From assembly GCA_021081985.1 (NCBI GenBank), contig GCA_021081985.1_3639.2: a stretch of DNA of 54,988 bases; one strand, 5' to 3'. Position 1 is the first letter of the stretch. Every line of letters starts with the position of its first letter. The notes under the pieces are model-generated. The model saw only the letters and a program-made list of their open reading frames with translations. It made no database searches and was not told where the DNA came from. Of the stretch, positions 1,881 to 54,544 are shown piece by piece. Position numbers and translations under genes: made by a program. The DNA comes from a phage.

Positions 1881-3881
1881 TCAAAATGGTGTGTCGTTGT
1901 CCAAATCTTCAGGTTGCTCAATAACAACAGCAGGTTCTTGTTGAGGAACAGAAACAGCAATTTTACCCACAGGTGTTTCAAGCTCTAAACTTTGAACCAT
2001 TGATTTAGGTCTTAGCATTACCTCCCCGTTGAGTTTAAACATATTGTCTTCCCACACCCATCCTGACGCATCAGAAAACTGACCATTATCATCCATAATC
2101 AGGGTATCCGCTATGCCTAATTTTTTGTGTGGACGGTTTTTCAAAACAACACTACGAATACGCCCACGAGATCGGTCAGGGAGTTCTTCAGGCTCGACAC
2201 CTAAGACAACCCACGATAACTGTTCGAGTGCTGCACTTCCCCTTAAAGATTCTTTTCTCACCGGATACCAGAAAGGTAACAAATTACCTTCTTTATCTTT
2301 CGGAATTTGTATATCAACACGCTTCATATGACTGATACTGAGGATAAACACGTCATATTTTTTGCAGAAGGCAGCCAATTCCGTCATGATGTTATCTAAA
2401 TCTCTTCGCTCGTTATCGGATTTTAATCCTGATATCACCATCGATAAGTGATCTAAGATAATCCATCTACACCCATCAAGGAAAACCATCTGTTTCAATT
2501 TTTGTAGTAATTGGTCAGTTGGTATTGAACCAAAGTGATCGAAAATTTTAACCTTATCTTCGGCAATCCATCGTTGGTGTATAGCTAAGTGCTGCTCATC
2601 GGTAAGGAATTGTTCTGGGTCTGCAACAAATGCTTTCGGGTCAATCTTTAGCTCCTCAGCATATAAGCTGTTTACAGACTCCTCCTCATCCTCCTCTAGA
2701 CGAATAATTGCAATTTTCTCGTTCTCTTTCCAACCGTCTAATCGGGGAATATCCATGTTACGGAGGTACTCGATAATTGCATACTCAATCTTTCTTGAGA
2801 AAGTTGATTTCCCAGCTCCAGATGGGCCTGTCAGTGTCCACAATTCTCCTGTTCGTGGGCCTCTTGTTAGTTCATACAAACGAGGAAAGCACGGCAACGG
2901 AACGCCATCTTTTTTCTTTTTACGGAGATTCTCAATAGATATTCTCTCCAACCCAATCAATTTATCAGGAACATATTTGTCCTGCGCTTTAGCAAACATA
3001 TTCCAGATATCCATCCATTTACCTTTTTTGTAAATATCTCGGATATCTTTAACACCATTTGGGTCATTGCGTTCATTTGGGTATCGTGCAACATAGATGT
3101 TGTCAGACAGCAAAAAACTAGCAACATCATCTGTGGCTTCCTTACCTTTCTTAATTCTGTGTTCTTTTTCCCTTGCTGTGGCTTCATCATTGTCTAAACC
3201 AAGGACTATCTTTTCATATTCCCTGATAAACTTTTCGTTGTGGGCAAATGTATCCACAGCATTGGCTGTACCACAGTTCAACCCGATAAAAGGTAATGTC
3301 GGGCAATTAGAAACCTCTTCCCCATCCTGAATTGCTTTGATGCCTTTTAAAGCATTGTTTGCCCACTCACGTACTGAACGTGACGTATTAGGATTACTAT
3401 GAAGAAATTTAATATACTCAAACCCAGCTTGCCAGCCAGCCGTTACATCGCCTTCCCCCTCAACAATAAAGATCTGTTTTTTACCAGATCCCATAGCAGC
3501 TTCATGTTGCCCAAAAAATTGAGAGGAAGCCTTCACTGTGCCAACAACAGAGAAATGCCCCTTTTTCTCTTTCGGGACGGTCCAGTCTCGTTTCTTGTAT
3601 CCTGTCAATTTCCCATATTTATCATAATATGGAAGATATGTTGCCACTACTGTAGTACCGTCTTTCAAATCTGTTGCAGATCTGATCTTGAAGTACTTAG
3701 CTGCATCTAAGCTAATATCCATTTGGGGGACAGCCAAGATCCTTGTACTATCCAAGACAGACTCTACAGTTTCTTCTTCTTTTTTCTGATAATTCACTTT
3801 ACCACCACTTTTTGTAGGCCGGAATGCTTTTGGGTTCTCACCTTCAAAGTATGCACCAGCCCCCCATTTTGTCATCTTCAT
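1881..3881 (-). CDS. Primase-helicase (T7 gp4-like, DnaB-family helicase domain)
   Basis: 666-aa ORF. Walker A LTGPSGAGKST, IILDHLSMV and LRGSAALEQLS motifs parallel T7 gp4 helicase motifs. N-terminal half is consistent with a primase domain. Confidence 0.75.
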   Translation of the reverse strand: MKMTKWGAGAYFEGENPKAFRPTKSGGKVNYQKKEEETVESVLDSTRILAVPQMDISLDAAKYFKIRSATDLKDGTTVVATYLPYYDKYGKLTGYKKRDWTVPKEKKGHFSVVGTVKASSQFFGQHEAAMGSGKKQIFIVEGEGDVTAGWQAGFEYIKFLHSNPNTSRSVREWANNALKGIKAIQDGEEVSNCPTLPFIGLNCGTANAVDTFAHNEKFIREYEKIVLGLDNDEATAREKEHRIKKGKEATDDVASFLLSDNIYVARYPNERNDPNGVKDIRDIYKKGKWMDIWNMFAKAQDKYVPDKLIGLERISIENLRKKKKDGVPLPCFPRLYELTRGPRTGELWTLTGPSGAGKSTFSRKIEYAIIEYLRNMDIPRLDGWKENEKIAIIRLEEDEEESVNSLYAEELKIDPKAFVADPEQFLTDEQHLAIHQRWIAEDKVKIFDHFGSIPTDQLLQKLKQMVFLDGCRWIILDHLSMVISGLKSDNERRDLDNIMTELAAFCKKYDVFILSISHMKRVDIQIPKDKEGNLLPFWYPVRKESLRGSAALEQLSWVVLGVEPEELPDRSRGRIRSVVLKNRPHKKLGIADTLIMDDNGQFSDASGWVWEDNMFKLNGEVMLRPKSMVQSLELETPVGKIAVSVPQQEPAVVIEQPEDLDNDTPF

Positions 3882-5312: not shown

Positions 5313-5778
5313 ACTCCCCCAACTCTTGTTTTAACTCAATATTTTCTTTTAACAGGGCATTCACAAAAGCTAATATGTGAACAAGGGAACTCTGACAACC
5401 ATTAGCATATAGTTCAGCTTCTACACGCTTTTTCAATTCTGCGCCATAGCCGTCTAAGCTGTCGAGATGCTCTTTAATTTTATCATAAGCATCTCGTTTT
5501 CCTCTTAGCTCATTAATAATGTACAGAACATTATCTGGGCTTGCGGTGGCAATGTAACTGGCATCGTAGTCATTTTGCCAGTGAGATAAATTCCCTGTTC
5601 CCTCATGTCTCTTTGCCGGACCCATTTTAGGATCTGTGATGAAAACAGTTTCTATTTTATTATCATTTTGGAATGCTACCATTGCATGTCCATGGCTATC
5701 TATCCACCAGTGCCCTCTGGTGGCTTTCTTTGCCAGTTTCTCAATATCTCCGATTAAGATATCAGCTTTTGTCTGCAT
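5305..5778 (-). CDS. Hypothetical protein
   Basis: 157-aa ORF with protein-like composition; no confident motif. Confidence 0.4.
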   Translation of the reverse strand: MQTKADILIGDIEKLAKKATRGHWWIDSHGHAMVAFQNDNKIETVFITDPKMGPAKRHEGTGNLSHWQNDYDASYIATASPDNVLYIINELRGKRDAYDKIKEHLDSLDGYGAELKKRVEAELYANGCQSSLVHILAFVNALLKENIELKQELGEYE

Positions 5779-26200: not shown

Positions 26201-26601
26201 CGCGAAAAAATTTTTATGGGTATCATAATTCTATCACACACTTAAACGCAAAGCAACATAAAAATTTTTGTTGAATGATAATCATTCTCATTTGCAGAAT
26301 GACAGGTAGGATTGGTGTCTTATCCTCCCCCGTTGACCATCGTCGCCGTAGTTTGAAGTTTATAGCCGTTCTCGGCTTATCTCTTTGTTAGATAGAGATT
26401 AACATAGTTGCCAAAGGAATCAAGCGTTAATTGTAATCTTTACGTTTCTTTACAAATTTATTTTGGACGAGTTACCGGCGATCGACCTTACAACCAGCGC
26501 CATGGTATGTTAGCCCCGCCTTTACGCCGTGGGGATGGCGTTTCCTCTTTTGTATGTTAGTCATAATAAGCCCAATCCCTGGGCTTGTCAAACATTTTTA
26601 T

Positions 26602-34700: not shown

Positions 34701-34892
34701 ATGGATGTACCACAAGTTAGAAAGGTATTAGCAGCGTTACGCTATCACAATTATAGCAAGGTGAAGAATGATCCTGATTATGTTGATTCAAGCCTGGAGG
34801 AAGACACATTGCAAGCTATAAGCCATATGCAGAAATTGCTTAAACGTATGACAGAGAAGAACAGATCTGATTATATAGGTGAAGAGATTTAA
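34701..34892 (+). CDS. Hypothetical small protein
   Basis: 63 aa; RBS AAAAGGAGTAATAAAA before ATG; last gene before the gene-poor region. Confidence 0.45.
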   Translation: MDVPQVRKVLAALRYHNYSKVKNDPDYVDSSLEEDTLQAISHMQKLLKRMTEKNRSDYIGEEI

Positions 34893-34923: not shown

Positions 34924-34952
34924 AAAGGGCGCTTAATGCGCCCTTTCTTTTT
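34924..34952 (+). terminator. Rho-independent terminator ending the plus-strand early cluster
   Basis: GGGCGC-TTAAT-GCGCCC followed by TTTCTTTTT. Confidence 0.6.
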
Positions 34953-35429
34953 GCTCTAATAAACATGATAAGTTTTATCTATCAAAACACCACACAGAAC
35001 AAAAATGAATAAAACGCGGTATCGAGCTAAACGAGGATAGGCAATACAACGGCAAGGCTAAACACTTAAGGCCGTTACAACGCGATTTAGGCCGCTTAAA
35101 ATCGATCCCCACCACAAACAACCCCCACAAAATGACCAAAACGACACAACATTACTTAAATGATAACCATTATCAATAACATAAGCATTTTTATGCGTTT
35201 TTAGTGAATATCTATTTAAATGATAATGACTCTCAACAACAAAATAACACGACCGAAGCGATTTAATCGCCTATCACAAAATAAATCAATTGTAAAGAAC
35301 AATTTAAAAGCTGCATAGGTGGCGCGACCGTAGGGAGCGACACAATAACGCAGTAGTAACCCCTCCCCCTCACTCCTTACAGTCGCCCGGTATCGGGCTA
35401 GCGTTATTATGTCGCTACGCGCCAACGCG

Positions 35430-35720
35430 TTAACAATTTTGCAAAGAAGCCTGCTTTGCAGGTTAAGCGCAATGCGCTTAATCGCGTAGCGACTATGTGA
35501 AATTATAACAGTTAAATTATTAATAAAATCTTGCAAAATTGTTAACCTCCTGCGTTATTGTGTCCATGAATGGATGAGGAATAATATTCCTCCCAGCTAC
35601 CGCTGCAAAATTGTGTCCTGTACGGATTAGTTACGTATGTAACTAACAACTAACGTTGCAAAATTGTGTCACGTAGTGATTAGCTGAGAATCAGCTAACC
35701 CGTAAAACGGGCTAAATTAT
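35430..35720. repeat. Cluster of TTGCAAAATTGT-type repeats, each followed by a short palindrome
   Basis: TTGCAAAG/TTGCAAAATTGT occurs near 35444, 35531, 35609 and 35661; palindromes include GTTACGTATGTAAC, TAGCTGAGAATCAGCTA and AAGCGCAATGCGCTT. Confidence 0.5.
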
Positions 35721-37482
35721 TCCCATTAATCCCCCGATTATTACGCAGTAAATCACTTGCTTATTACGTTTAATTAGCCTGTTAAACAGGCTAGTAATGT
35801 GATGACCATTAACCACGATTATTGTTTGGATTATCCAGCCTAAACCGCTTATCATGCTGTTAAATTCTGTTAAGTGCCTGAAATGCCAGATCAATTTGGT
35901 CACTGCGTGATTATGATTGCGACAATAATTTGCTTATGATTGTTTATGTGCTGTTTATAATTGCTTATGTTTTGTTATAGTTTGCTATTTATTTGTTATG
36001 TTTTGTTTGTGATTTGTTAAACACCCTTTTATCTTTCCTCTTACATTTTCGTTATATTTGATTTGTTATCGTTTTCCCTCATTTCGCTTCGTTATTGAAA
36101 ACAAGAATTATTATCATTGATACGCCTTAACAGGCTGGCAGGTCTGTTAGTGGTCTGGTTCTCTGTGTGGTCATGTGATGGTTGGTTGTAGTAGCCTGGT
36201 TTTATGGTCTGGCCTGTTATTGTTAGCTTGCTTATTGTTGTGTGGTGTATGTATCAGTTAGCTAGTGCATTAGCTGGTGCGCATAACGTGTATTATGTTA
36301 AATCACTAAGCCCACAAATAAGGTGGCTTGTCAATAACAATAAGTGCTGTGTGCGGTAGTCTGGCCCATCAGTGTGCCCTTTTGTTGTGTGGTGTCCGAT
36401 GACAAGGCGGGACTATCCACCCGACATCGTGAAAACTCGATGGATTCTCGATCACAATAGCTGTAAGATATTTTGTAAAGATTCGTAGTTTTTCTTGACA
36501 CCCACAATCATCCGTCTAACCCTTCAGAGATAAATACATGACAAATTCGCACAAATTCACCACCTGCCGTGCCACGTCACTAATCTCGCAAGGATATTTC
36601 TGGAAGTGAACCTGCACGCAATGCAGCACGCGTCTTGTTGTGTGGGGAGGGTGGGGTAACAATCAGGAAGTGGTGTGGCTGTGATAACGTATTGGATAAA
36701 AACTCTGGCTGGCTTGTCGATGATATTTGTGTGGGGAAATGCTGATGGGTAAGAGATAAGACACTTGTCTCCGGCAGGGGTGGGGTGTGGAAAAGAAATG
36801 GGTCGGACAGACCCATTGTGATATAGAAATGAAATGGCCATCTCACCATTGACCAGGTAAGCCAATATCAAGGCCAAATTCGTGGCACTCATCCCAGTCA
36901 AGACTTTGATTCCAGTTTGTAACTGTCCTCTCTGTGTGGTGGGTGTATGATGCTCTCTGTGACTGCTTTGGCATCTTTTTTGTCTGAGATTTCCCGAAAA
37001 GAGGTGTGTTGTCATTGAGTCTTCCGGCAGCCTTTTCACCCTTTTTGACTTGTCTCCCACGGGCATTCCACTGCTCCAGTGTCCTGTAACACATAAAATC
37101 ATTCTCCTGTAATATCTGGTGTGGGGAATGGTAGTGGAGAATATCAACCGTGTCAAGTAGGTTTGCTTAGAGGCGTTATTATAAAAATTTTTTGGTGGGC
37201 TTTCTGGGGCTGGCTGTCGGGCTGTAAACAAGCTGTGAAGCCAGATGTGACGGGGCTTTCAGCTATGTTGTGTGTTGATCGCAAATAAGGATAAAATAAT
37301 CAATATAAATGCAGATAAATGTTGTTTTATTGAGTTTGTGTAATAGGTGTGTCATGTCTTGATAGGTTATGACCTGTACATATTTTGTACAATTGTGTGG
37401 TGTGCAGAGTTTGGGTGGCAATTCCCCAGACGGGGCAGGGTAGGTTATGGTGGAGAGCAGGGGCATGGTTAGCCCCATATGA

Positions 37483-37806
37483 TCAGGGTTGTGCGTCTGT
37501 TTGTTTGAACTGGTCTTTTGAACGTATTACATAACCACAACCATATTTTCTCAGCCAGACCAGTTCCCATGGACTATCACTCAGGTTTTTCCTGTTTATC
37601 TCTTTTAGCTGGGCAACCGCATCGTCCCATGATGTGACTTCGAGATAACCGATGAGACTGTCCTCTCCAAAATCTCCGTAATCAAATGTGCATCTGACCT
37701 TGGCGATAAACTCTGTCTGTGGATTTTCGGGTTTTACAAAAGCCCAGTGAAAGATTTGTTCTGTGCAATGCTCATTAACCCACCTTATTTGTGTGGTCAT
37801 AATCAC
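37483..37806 (-). CDS. Hypothetical protein
   Basis: 107 aa; first gene of the minus-strand block after the gene-poor region. Confidence 0.4.
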   Translation of the reverse strand: MIMTTQIRWVNEHCTEQIFHWAFVKPENPQTEFIAKVRCTFDYGDFGEDSLIGYLEVTSWDDAVAQLKEINRKNLSDSPWELVWLRKYGCGYVIRSKDQFKQTDAQP

Positions 37807-37809
37807 CTC

Positions 37810-38433
37810 TTATCGTATAATCTCGCCTCGGAAAACTGTCTCTTGCTCCTGAAGATGCCTTGTTATGTAGTCTTTAATCCGATCATCAACCCATTTAATA
37901 CGTTCTGGGTTGGTGTGACATTTATCATTGAGGCTTTCCAACCAGTAAGCCGCTTGGTCAGCGGTGAATGGAAAATTCAATGGGCGACCCGCAGCTACGA
38001 ATTGTGCTTGCATCTCCCGAAGTAAGTTATCCCTTTCTCGCCATGACCAGCGCCATTCTGCATAAGCCTTCAGATTGTTTTTCAGACCTGTTTGTTTTGA
38101 AAATTTATACCCTAAATATTTGTCAGGGTCATTAAGCCATTTCTGGTAAGCCGTGTAAAACTCATATAGTTTTTCACTTGAAACTTTTACCTTTGTTGTC
38201 TGCATTGGTGGCAGAGGCAGATATGCCCAGTGTGTTGGTTCACACACAATACGTGTATCATCGTGGTAAGCATACTGGAATACACCTTGCCCAATATGAG
38301 CACCAACAAACATTTCTTTAGTGTCTGAGCAGAACACCAGAACATCTACAAAATCTGGTGGTAACTTATCGGAGCACATTACCCATGTATCTGTGTGATT
38401 GGTTTTTAATTCCGCAAAAAATTTATTGTTCAT
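37810..38433 (-). CDS. DUF551-domain protein (start trimmed to MNNKFFAELK)
   Basis: WVMCSDKLPPDFVDVLVF ... THWAYLPLPP matches the DUF551 signature; RBS AAGGGTG before the internal ATG. Confidence 0.5.
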   Translation of the reverse strand: MNNKFFAELKTNHTDTWVMCSDKLPPDFVDVLVFCSDTKEMFVGAHIGQGVFQYAYHDDTRIVCEPTHWAYLPLPPMQTTKVKVSSEKLYEFYTAYQKWLNDPDKYLGYKFSKQTGLKNNLKAYAEWRWSWRERDNLLREMQAQFVAAGRPLNFPFTADQAAYWLESLNDKCHTNPERIKWVDDRIKDYITRHLQEQETVFRGEIIR

Positions 38434-38626
38434 ACTTACACCCTTAAAAATAAGGAAAACAGACAGGCGACCCCACCAAATACATTGACACAACTTAGAA
38501 GAATACTCCACAATCTTTTCCAGCCTTTAACAGCAGCACTTTCCGAGAATCCGCAGAGTGCCAATATGAAATTGGAAATTCCAAGAAAGGCCAGTAGTAA
38601 ATTTAATAGTATATCTATCATCGGCA

Positions 38627-54019: not shown

Positions 54020-54238
54020 CGCACCATTACGTGCTGCTGCATGTCACCATGCAGATCAGACCATATCTTCATGCTTAAAGCATGTCTGCCGTTTGGGGTG
54101 TCATCAGCTTACACTCTACATCCTTACATTCATCAGGATTGGTCGTTAGGCATTTACGGTTGATACCGATTTAGCACGGGATTCCCTCCATAGAGGATTC
54201 CCCCGTTTAGGCAGATTTTACATGAGCAGTTATAGTTT
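54020..54238 (-). other. Group I intron (ORF-less, about 220 nt) within nrdD; boundaries approximate
   Basis: Minus strand CUAAACGGGGGAAUCCUCUAUGGAGGGAAUCCCGUGCUAAAUCGG closely resembles the T4 td intron core as recalled; R-like AACGACCA and S-like GAUAUGGUC show a compensatory P7 change (GACCA/UGGUC); GNRA hairpin CUGCAUG-GUGA-CAUGCAG near the 3' end; P1 candidate exon CAUGGGU with guide GCUCAUG. Confidence 0.7.
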
Positions 54239-54544
54239 ACCCATGCTTGTAACACGCCCGTCTGAAGAACCTGTTACCTTTTTATTCAACGGTACAGATA
54301 TGAAATCTGGATAAATCCTTTCAACACAACACTCCATGGCTAATTGCTTTAAGTCGTAGTTTGGATCGCCAGGCTTCATGTTTACACCATCTTCCAAGAA
54401 GAAGATAACTTTTGGAAAAACAGGTGTGACTTTATCTTTGCCAAGTCCGTTTTTGTGAACAAGAAAATAATTCTTTGTAATCATTCTCCCAAAATAGGAA
54501 GTATCAAGCCCAAGGCTCAAGGTGATAAATGGGCATTGCATTGC
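54239..54544 (-). CDS. nrdD: NrdD internal exon; boundaries approximate
   Basis: ORF 54230..54541 (MQCPFITLSLGLDTS ... RVTSMG); the in-frame stop lies just inside the following intron. Confidence 0.55.

Follow-up and report, generated by a model that had tools for sequence, protein, structure and literature searches.

A dif-like XerC/XerD site in the predicted terminal repeat of an rV5-like phage

Why would a phage genome hold some 2.5 kbp of nearly gene-free DNA at the very point where two blocks of genes run toward each other? We considered this question for a phage contig of 54,988 nucleotides (NCBI GenBank assembly GCA_021081985.1, contig GCA_021081985.1_3639.2), the whole of which is referred to here as the window. 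Genes on the plus strand extend up to 34892 and genes on the minus strand extend down to 37483, so that two transcription units converge at the region between them. An initial annotation of this DNA, made from the sequence alone, had described a gene-poor gap at the convergence of two gene blocks, and the description holds, with almost no coding sequence between 34892 and 37483. This gap is very probably the terminus (genome-end) region of the phage. Within it, at 36276-36303 on the plus strand, lies a 28-mer which, judged by its sequence, is likely to be a functional site for the host recombinases XerC and XerD. With moderate confidence, we read these together as a genome-end (concatemer-junction) region with a host-type Xer site inside a short direct terminal repeat (DTR). 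On this reading, a purely lytic phage may rely on the XerC/XerD enzymes of its host, which act at dif to untangle chromosomes.

The region matches Escherichia phages TH18, 18-1-2, 19-1-2, 24-2-1, and Av-05 with 82-89% nucleotide identity. TH18 and Av-05 are classified in the Vequintavirinae (rV5-like myoviruses), and by sequence similarity the phage studied here is a member of the same subfamily. In rV5 the equivalent DNA was drawn as a grey “non-coding” box flanked by convergent units whose last genes are 163 and 164; its authors assumed a circularly permuted genome and linked the switch in composition to the direction of transcription (PMC3606486). Fixed ends have been reported in relatives, with a 459-bp DTR in Gotham (PMC7471380) and 458-bp terminal repeats in EdH4 and HdK5 (PMC6563267). 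The Gotham record (MT682716) has its DTR at 1-459 and 136567-137025, with approximately 1 kb of gene-free DNA on each side of the repeat and the genes on both sides pointing at the ends. It is oriented opposite to the window, as a homolog of the window’s 63-aa gene, with 81% amino acid identity, sits in the corresponding Gotham block. The same 458-459 bp open five independently deposited records (EdH4, HdK5, ECP2309, and YN3 among the names given), are annotated as a repeat_region in four more (Danish) phages, and are found in rV5 variants at ~105.0-105.5 kb, the place of the skew switch described for rV5. The DTR of Hena1 spans 519 bp, and phi92, from a sister subfamily, has a 343-bp DTR in the homologous gap, 1069 nt past the same terminator. 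The non-coding box and the terminal repeats of relatives were already known, and this gap is probably a further member of that class. Among the options raised in the initial annotation, a terminal-repeat or packaging region is the one backed by these relatives, whose mapped ends lie in the same convergent gap.

From collinear anchors, we place a predicted DTR of ~450 bp at 36020-36470. Nucleotide similarity between the window and Gotham is limited to short anchors, all of which are collinear; window positions 36275-36303 match a segment inside the Gotham repeat. The Seunavirus KE22 serves as a bridge to Gotham, whose inner repeat edge is matched by KE22 3075-3113, while KE22 3341-3416 corresponds to window 36275-36350 and KE22 3501-3599 to window 36434-36532. 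In a multiple alignment, the mapped Gotham edge (ATGTCA/GACAAG, the slash marking the edge) stands opposite TTGTTA/AACACC in the window, at 36019/36020, and three-way identity rises from 0.21 over 35960-36019 to 0.82 from 36020 onward. The distance from the terminator to the repeat is 1074 nt here, compared with 1069 nt in phi92 and ~997 nt in Gotham. The left edge would be accurate to about ±10 nt; the right edge has no significant similarity to the mapped edges and is placed by distance alone, to about ±20 nt.

The 28-mer within this predicted repeat consists of an XerC arm, GGTGCGCATAA, a center of CGTGTA, and an XerD arm, TTATGTTAAAT. The dif site of E. coli is GGTGCGCATAA-TGTATA-TTATGTTAAAT (PMC3025954). 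Both arms of the phage sequence are identical to those of dif (11/11 for XerC and 11/11 for XerD, or 22/22 overall), and the 6-bp central region has two differences from that of the host, on the XerC and XerD sides. When 56 nt around the site were used as a query, 5415 of 5426 complete E. coli genomes were matched at 5415 chromosomal places, with a median of one per genome, in unannotated DNA. The chromosomal match covers 31 of 33 positions, and in one genome inspected it adjoins hipA and reads as canonical dif. The pattern had earlier been considered as a terminase site or a promoter, which was dropped once 67 unrelated metagenome contigs proved to contain it; these range over 35-72% GC and have no neighboring genes in common. 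It was because this result made no sense for a phage signal that the 28-mer was recognized as dif. The clustering of contig ends near the 28-mer was also rejected as a proxy for physical ends, most of these contigs probably being bacterial dif loci.

Among phages, the 28-mer is the only sequence common to all Vequintavirinae loci compared, with flanks that cannot be aligned, and it keeps the same orientation relative to the flanking genes. A close match to the site was found in 246 phage records, almost all from Vequintavirinae; in 242, it extends over 80% or more of a 32-nt query. Among the matches listed, at least seven genera or clades are represented (Vequintavirus, Avunavirus, Seunavirus, Certrevirus, Henunavirus, Mydovirus, and Septuagintavirus), and a few of the weakest matches are to unrelated phages, such as a microvirus and a Ralstonia phage. 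Where the DTR is annotated, the site lies inside it, at 170-197 of 459 in Gotham and at 288-316 of 519 in Hena1. Its distance from the left edge is 262 nt in Gotham, 287 nt in Hena1, and 256 nt here, measured from the predicted edge. In UPEC06, whose record annotates no repeat, the site is found at 236-262 from the record start, or ~235 nt from what was taken as the edge, and is present twice, as would be expected of a terminal repeat. The centers found in nine tabulated viral contigs of at least 90 kb from IMG/VR were CGTGTA, TGGGTA, GGTGTA, CGTGTT, TGTGTA, and GACATA, and never the host TGTATA. A 261806-nt viral contig (L012 and L045, from IMG/VR and JGI) also carries a dif-like site, with perfect arms and the center TGTGTA, and by this resemblance the feature may extend to jumbo phages outside the Vequintavirinae.

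The two convergent transcription units stop at the borders of the gap, and non-coding arms of boxes and palindromes enclose the predicted short DTR. In the mechanism that we propose, the repeat lies at either end of the virion DNA, so that every genome injected would bring in two Xer sites in direct orientation, one per terminal repeat. Host XerCD would then bind the site and recombine the two terminal copies, producing a genome-length circle and a repeat-length linear by-product, and the same site could resolve or interconvert circular multimers. A center unlike that of the host would let phage-by-phage exchange proceed while disfavoring both strand exchanges with chromosomal dif. In line with such a private center, neither this region nor the Gotham end region was found in 5426 E. 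coli genomes or 72556 plasmids. That cyclization is the main use of the site is a tentative suggestion, somewhat less probable than its contrary. A little more doubtful still is the general form of the proposal, in which virulent Vequintavirinae would keep a dif mimic in each terminal repeat, host XerCD would circularize or re-join their genomes, the private center would insulate them, and Fur-like palindromes would play an accessory or regulatory part. Transposon insertion data from a relative lend experimental support, as a ~2 kb intergenic region of Bas54 tolerates no insertions and was concluded to have an important role (bioRxiv 10.1101/2025.11.20.689424). Bas54 is phage MaxBurger, and its insertion-free interval contains the Gotham-type repeat. 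Use of a dif mimic by XerCD would explain this intolerance, for which the repeat, the packaging signals, and the Xer site together would account.

Several observations weigh against a terminal Xer site that serves the phage in this manner. The gaps of phi92 and phAPEC8 were searched for an Xer site and none was found; since these phages have the gap architecture and a DTR without it, the site is not required for such a genome end. In a Keio screen of LL12, a V5-like phage, xerC, xerD, ftsK, and recA are absent from the main text and one supplementary file (PMC7229145), and so Xer is apparently not essential for plating in a recA+ host. If homologous recombination between the 459-bp repeats can stand in for Xer when the host is recA+, the LL12 result would be accounted for. 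It also seems that XerCD acting on concatemers could excise monomer circles, which would be counter-productive for packaging. Chromosomal dif needs FtsK guided by convergent GGGNAGGG motifs. The gap contains three of the window’s seven copies of this FtsK-orienting motif, at 35361-35368 (-), 36644-36651 (+), and 37433-37440 (+), and all three are directed away from the site, opposite to what is found on the chromosome. Motifs of the GGGGAGGG type are present at the equivalent place in Gotham, PVP-SE1, and one further locus (L011). Accessory boxes of the cer/psi type (ArgR, ArcA, PepA) were not recognized near the site, the ARG box having been sought by eye. Finally, the repeat edges proposed for this phage derive from relatives with which it shares only short anchors.

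Comparison with known systems places the locus nearest to the Vequintavirus terminal region (rV5, Gotham, EdH4, HdK5, and Hena1). Both have ~2.5 kb devoid of genes where two blocks converge, and they have the flanking gene and the mirrored skew in common; the invariant 28-mer lies about as far from the edge of the repeat in each. The present locus differs from Vequintavirus proper in that the sequence is unrelated save for the 28-mer and short edge motifs, and in a left arm that resembles phi92 and phAPEC8; moreover, Vequintavirus ends are mapped in Gotham, EdH4, and HdK5, whereas those of the TH18/Av-05/18-1-2 clade are predicted. As a recombination site, the 28-mer shares with dif, cer of ColE1, and psi of pSC101 the layout of an 11-bp XerC arm, a 6-bp center, and an 11-bp XerD arm, both arms being those of dif. 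It departs from dif in its CGTGTA center, in its location in the terminal repeat of a virulent phage, and in GGGNAGGG motifs that diverge from it. The plasmid sites cer and psi resolve multimers with the aid of ArgR/ArcA/PepA accessory sequences, and no such region was recognized here.

Among phages, P1 carries loxP in terminally repeated DNA, where Cre circularizes the injected linear DNA, a function that is dispensable when homologous recombination is available. The likeness to the present locus lies in a recombination site within terminally repeated DNA and in the proposed circularization by a site-specific recombinase. P1 encodes its recombinase and packages by the headful, whereas here the enzyme would be that of the host and the repeats fixed and short. 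The T7 concatemer junction reportedly comprises a short terminal repeat, arrays of short repeats, and a hairpin on the side of the preceding genome. The present region is similar in having a short repeat flanked by short-repeat arrays and hairpin-forming sequence, but has no sequence relation to T7, which is not known to have an Xer site; here, in contrast, both gene blocks point toward the ends. CTX-phi, other filamentous phages, and some gokushoviruses are also viruses with a dif-like site for host XerCD. Those Xer-exploiting phages are small, have single-stranded DNA, integrate at dif, and often have degenerate XerD arms and longer centers (PMC3025954), in contrast to a virulent myovirus (relatives of 121-134 kb) whose site has perfect arms and for which searches found no integrated copy.

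The gap is not wholly devoid of genes. The initial annotation had stated that no open reading frame (ORF) here has credible composition or a ribosome binding site, which is contradicted by an 83-aa ORF at 36843-37094 (-) that matches phrog_25175 (E=2e-38) and has AGGAG 9 nt before its ATG. This is a real gene, with homologs in 51 phage records and a product that shows a weak match to an ArdC N-terminal motif; no relatives with solved structures were found. Its substitutions are distributed 6/2/12 by codon position, whereas every other gap ORF is flat. Public assemblies contain the exact 83-aa sequence in 138 blocks, and in all ten contigs inspected (10/10) a stretch of 1.8-2.0 kb without a called gene adjoins it. 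By consensus match, a sigma-70-like promoter (TTGACA-17-TACCAT) is predicted at 37128-37156 (-), and an intrinsic terminator of the gene lies at 36797-36817 (-). When coding potential was assessed for all gap ORFs of at least 30 aa, only the 83-aa gene passed, and searches for protein similarity returned nothing beyond it. The longest ORF (36557-37231), said to be Trp-rich, contains just 1.3% Trp (with 8.5% Pro and 4.5% His) and shows no codon periodicity. As the 83-aa ORF is a real gene, the gene-free DNA proper shrinks to 34947-36796 and a 390-nt spacer at 37095-37482. Over 37157-37482, this spacer, which separates the 83-aa gene from the minus block, is conserved and G+T-rich, with GTGTGG motifs and the single GGGNAGGG at 37433-37440; a 71-aa ORF within it is broken by a 5-nt indel in Av-05.

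The gap as a whole is a mosaic, of which the left arm (34947-35250) is common to the Stephanstirmvirinae (phi92, phAPEC8), while the repeat core and the right-hand element (36020-36540) are common to the Vequintavirinae (Seunavirus, Vequintavirus). At its left border, the plus block ends with a gene at 34701-34892 (+; phrog_9599, E=1.5e-37) followed by a bidirectional intrinsic terminator at 34924-34946 (AAAGGGCGC-TTAAT-GCGCCCTTT, then a T-run), which is conserved with compensatory changes in Av-05 and recurs, annotated as a terminator, in phi92 and phAPEC8. At the right border, the minus block ends with a gene at 37483 (-). After the left-hand terminator comes a conserved element at 34947-35100, with 74-80% nucleotide identity to the Stephanstirmvirinae (phi92, phAPEC8, and relatives). 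A minus-strand ORF over this element has ~49% amino acid identity against 74-77% nucleotide identity, with flat substitutions across codon positions, and the element is therefore regarded as non-coding. It was also considered as a promoter and set aside for want of an acceptable -10 element.

Two Fur-box-like palindromes follow, within a 60-nt direct repeat at 35153-35244: TGATAACCATTATCA at 35161-35175 and TGATAATGACTCTCA at 35221-35235. The former resembles the Fur consensus TGATAATnATTATCA, as written, at 14 of 15 positions (one mismatch), and a Fur-like motif occupies the equivalent place in phi92 and phAPEC8. Across 17 loci, matches to TGATAATnATTATCA with at most two mismatches occur at 0.67/kb around the terminal region compared with 0.05/kb outside it, and perfect copies exist in phi92 (inside the DTR), in KE22, and in a distant IMG/VR lineage. 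The palindromes were also tried as ARG boxes, which fit poorly; the Fur consensus fits better. Our literature search found no paper linking Fur boxes to phage terminal repeats. Elsewhere in the window, genes are also sparse and the GC skew dips at 26230-26600, where a Fur-type box with one mismatch, TGATAATCATTCTCA, at 26276-26290 overlaps a TTGAAT -35-like hexamer and closely resembles the motifs of the phi92 and phAPEC8 terminal regions.

Further right, a long interrupted palindrome (GGCGCGACCGTAGGGAGCGACACAATAACGC ... GCGTTATTATGTCGCTACGCGCC) spans 35320-35424, with a left arm conserved in Seunavirus KE22 (window 35319-35360 against KE22 2554-2595, 83% identity). Perfect 16-bp inverted repeats (GTTAACAATTTTGCAA and TTGCAAAATTGTTAAC, 35429-35546) then enclose an 86-bp segment (35445-35530) which has the same orientation in six relatives, is fully inverted in Av-05, is partly inverted in TH18 and one other relative (L027), and is deleted in three. 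This pattern could be palindrome-driven or could reflect a DNA switch of the Hin/Gin type; palindrome instability would account just as well for the deletions seen there. The four TTGCAAAATTGT-like repeats reported earlier, each followed by a short palindrome, were recovered as three direct boxes (35531, 35603, and 35656) and one inverted box (35429-35444), each adjoining a hairpin and all confined to this region. When up to three mismatches to TTGCAAAATTGT are allowed, 7 of the 13 matches in the whole window cluster at 35339-35670. The direct boxes belong to three modules at 35531-35700 (+), each composed of TGCAAAATTGTGTC(C/A), 6-7 nt, GAT, and a hairpin with a 7-8-bp stem and a 3-4-nt loop. 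Number and order of the palindromes and box-hairpin modules over 35320-35700 vary between close relatives, and the folding of 35300-35720 is far stronger than that of shuffled sequences (z = -10.8).

Between these modules and the predicted repeat lies a T-rich degenerate tandem array (35928-36019, +), into which the TTGTTAT/TTTGTT motifs of the initial annotation resolve; it has periods of ~10.5 bp and 21 bp, is very variable among relatives, and stops exactly at the predicted left edge of the repeat. GC content is only 27-30% over 35900-36100. On the right side of the repeat, a conserved element common to Seunavirus (AAGATATTTTGTAAAGATTCGTAGTTTTTCTTGACACCC ... CCCTTCAGAGATAAAT) occupies 36434-36540. 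Next to it, at 36537-36562, the window and one relative (L035) are without a unit of ~43-48 nt, comprising a CCCTTCAGAGATAAAT repeat, a hairpin, a T-run, and GGGCTTTTT, that is present in most relatives (L001, L002, L028, and others). Motifs of the CTCTTCAGG type recur on the right side of the repeat in Gotham and KE22. The TTGACA box at 36497 was examined as a promoter and rejected, having no acceptable -10 element.

The strand composition of the gap bears out what had been noticed about its right-hand part and adds a counterpart on the left. The plus strand is G+T-rich over 35900-37480, where the fraction of 0.593 is the maximum of all 1.58-kb windows along the stretch (mean 0.495, sd 0.023), and it is poor in C (17.5%). 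GTGTGG occurs in 10 plus-strand copies in the region, or 3.86/kb compared with 0.38/kb elsewhere; candidate readings as DnaA boxes, IHF sites, or sigma-70 promoters gave nothing convincing by eye or promoter scan. Chi (GCTGGTGG) was searched for in the region and was not found. At 34950-35320 there is a mirror-image arm which the initial annotation had missed, with the lowest G+T in the window (0.367) and 13% G on the plus strand. Gotham shows this mirrored skew as well, and so does the left arm of phi92. The skew passes from minus to plus across the center of the gap, and we ascribe this switch to the change in the direction of transcription, as the two fall at the same place.

Other functions for the region must be weighed against a genome-end region with an Xer site. 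The nearest would have the site act as cer and psi do on plasmids, resolving multimers of a circular form or balancing monomers and multimers for packaging, without circularizing incoming DNA. One site per genome unit in a concatemer and canonical arms would suit it, as would palindromes that several lineages carry ~160-250 nt from the site toward XerC, at the position of the accessory sequences in plasmid sites; however, phages with a DTR normally package concatemers, no ArgR or ArcA box was recognized, and these phages would have to replicate as circles, leaving it fairly unlikely. An attachment site, by which the phage would integrate at host dif and persist in a hidden carrier state, has a precedent in filamentous phages that integrate via dif-like sites (PMC3025954), and the exact 83-aa protein sequence does occur in two NCBI genome assemblies. 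The absence of this region and of the Gotham end region from the 5426 complete E. coli genomes and 72556 plasmids, a center in which the XerC and the XerD side each depart from host dif, and the description of these phages as lytic make integration very improbable.

Two further explanations address the arms rather than the site, and each strikes us as unlikely. Clustered 14-nt boxes, extreme fold potential, the 27-30% GC of 35900-36100, and a skew running from minus to plus across the center could mark a replication origin, formed by the boxes, hairpins, and AT-rich phased array (35300-36130), with the composition switch marking divergent replication; such an origin would be compatible with a terminal repeat carrying an Xer site. 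Against it, the boxes are spaced irregularly at 53-72 nt, which is atypical for iterons, an initiator gene was not identified in the vicinity, the skew switches where the direction of transcription changes (also the case in rV5), and the modules are shuffled, lost, or inverted between close relatives. For the replication origin or terminus suggested in the initial annotation, boxes and an AT-rich stretch are present, but the composition switch matches the change in the direction of transcription. The skewed arms might instead be Rho-loading zones that shield the terminal repeat from convergent transcription through C+A-rich, G-poor read-through RNA, since G makes up 13% of the plus strand at 34950-35320 and 17.5% of the minus strand at 35900-37480, with the same mirrored skew in Gotham and the left arm of phi92. 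That idea is drawn from composition only, and intrinsic terminators already stand at both borders. Least probable, along with integration, is that the gap encodes non-coding RNA or consists of decayed genes. The many hairpins, the TTGACA box at 36497, and the hairpin and T-run found after 36540 in relatives could be so interpreted, but flat codon-position counts, frame-breaking indels, and the lack of protein similarity beyond the 83-aa gene speak against decayed genes, and the non-coding RNA proposed earlier found no support from either a tRNA or an Rfam match at the curated threshold (best E=0.17, on the terminator).

If the preferred reading of a genome-end region with a host-type Xer site is true, a function open to testing can be assigned to DNA that the 2013 rV5 study showed as a “non-coding” box without explanation and that, in a related phage, was found in 2025 to tolerate no transposon insertions. 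Large virulent tailed phages would also be added to the elements that hijack XerCD, until now plasmids, filamentous phages, and microviruses; in such large phages, the joining of short-terminal-repeat genomes after injection is poorly known. We found no report of a dif mimic in the terminal repeat of a virulent myovirus in the searchable literature, outside which most subscription journals fall, so that a prior description is possible. None of the papers listed that name these phages mentions XerD, and the Xer-exploiting viruses found were filamentous phages, microviruses, and non-tailed phages. The Vequintavirinae are common candidates for therapy and biocontrol; a dif mimic, if true, would bear on their safety assessment, through the question of possible integration, and engineering should leave the region intact.

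The surroundings of the gap offer some minor observations. A 233-aa DUF551 protein is encoded at 37810-38511 (-), and its C-terminal half is homologous to phAPEC8 gp245, the first gene past that phage’s gap, which lies on the opposite strand relative to the gap compared with the window’s homolog; the gene block on this side is therefore inverted between the two subfamilies. Many independent assemblies and three GenBank “complete genomes” (18-1-2, 19-1-2, and 24-2-1) are ~52-56 kb, the size of the window, and the same DNA is internal in TH18 (134 kb) and in a 132-kb metagenome scaffold. The ~54-kb records look like recurrent assembly fragments rather than whole genomes, with breakage possibly at repeated elements such as an intron. 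A group I intron (Rfam RF00028, 80.9 bits, E=4.8e-19) lies near the right end of the window, at 54037-54277 (-).

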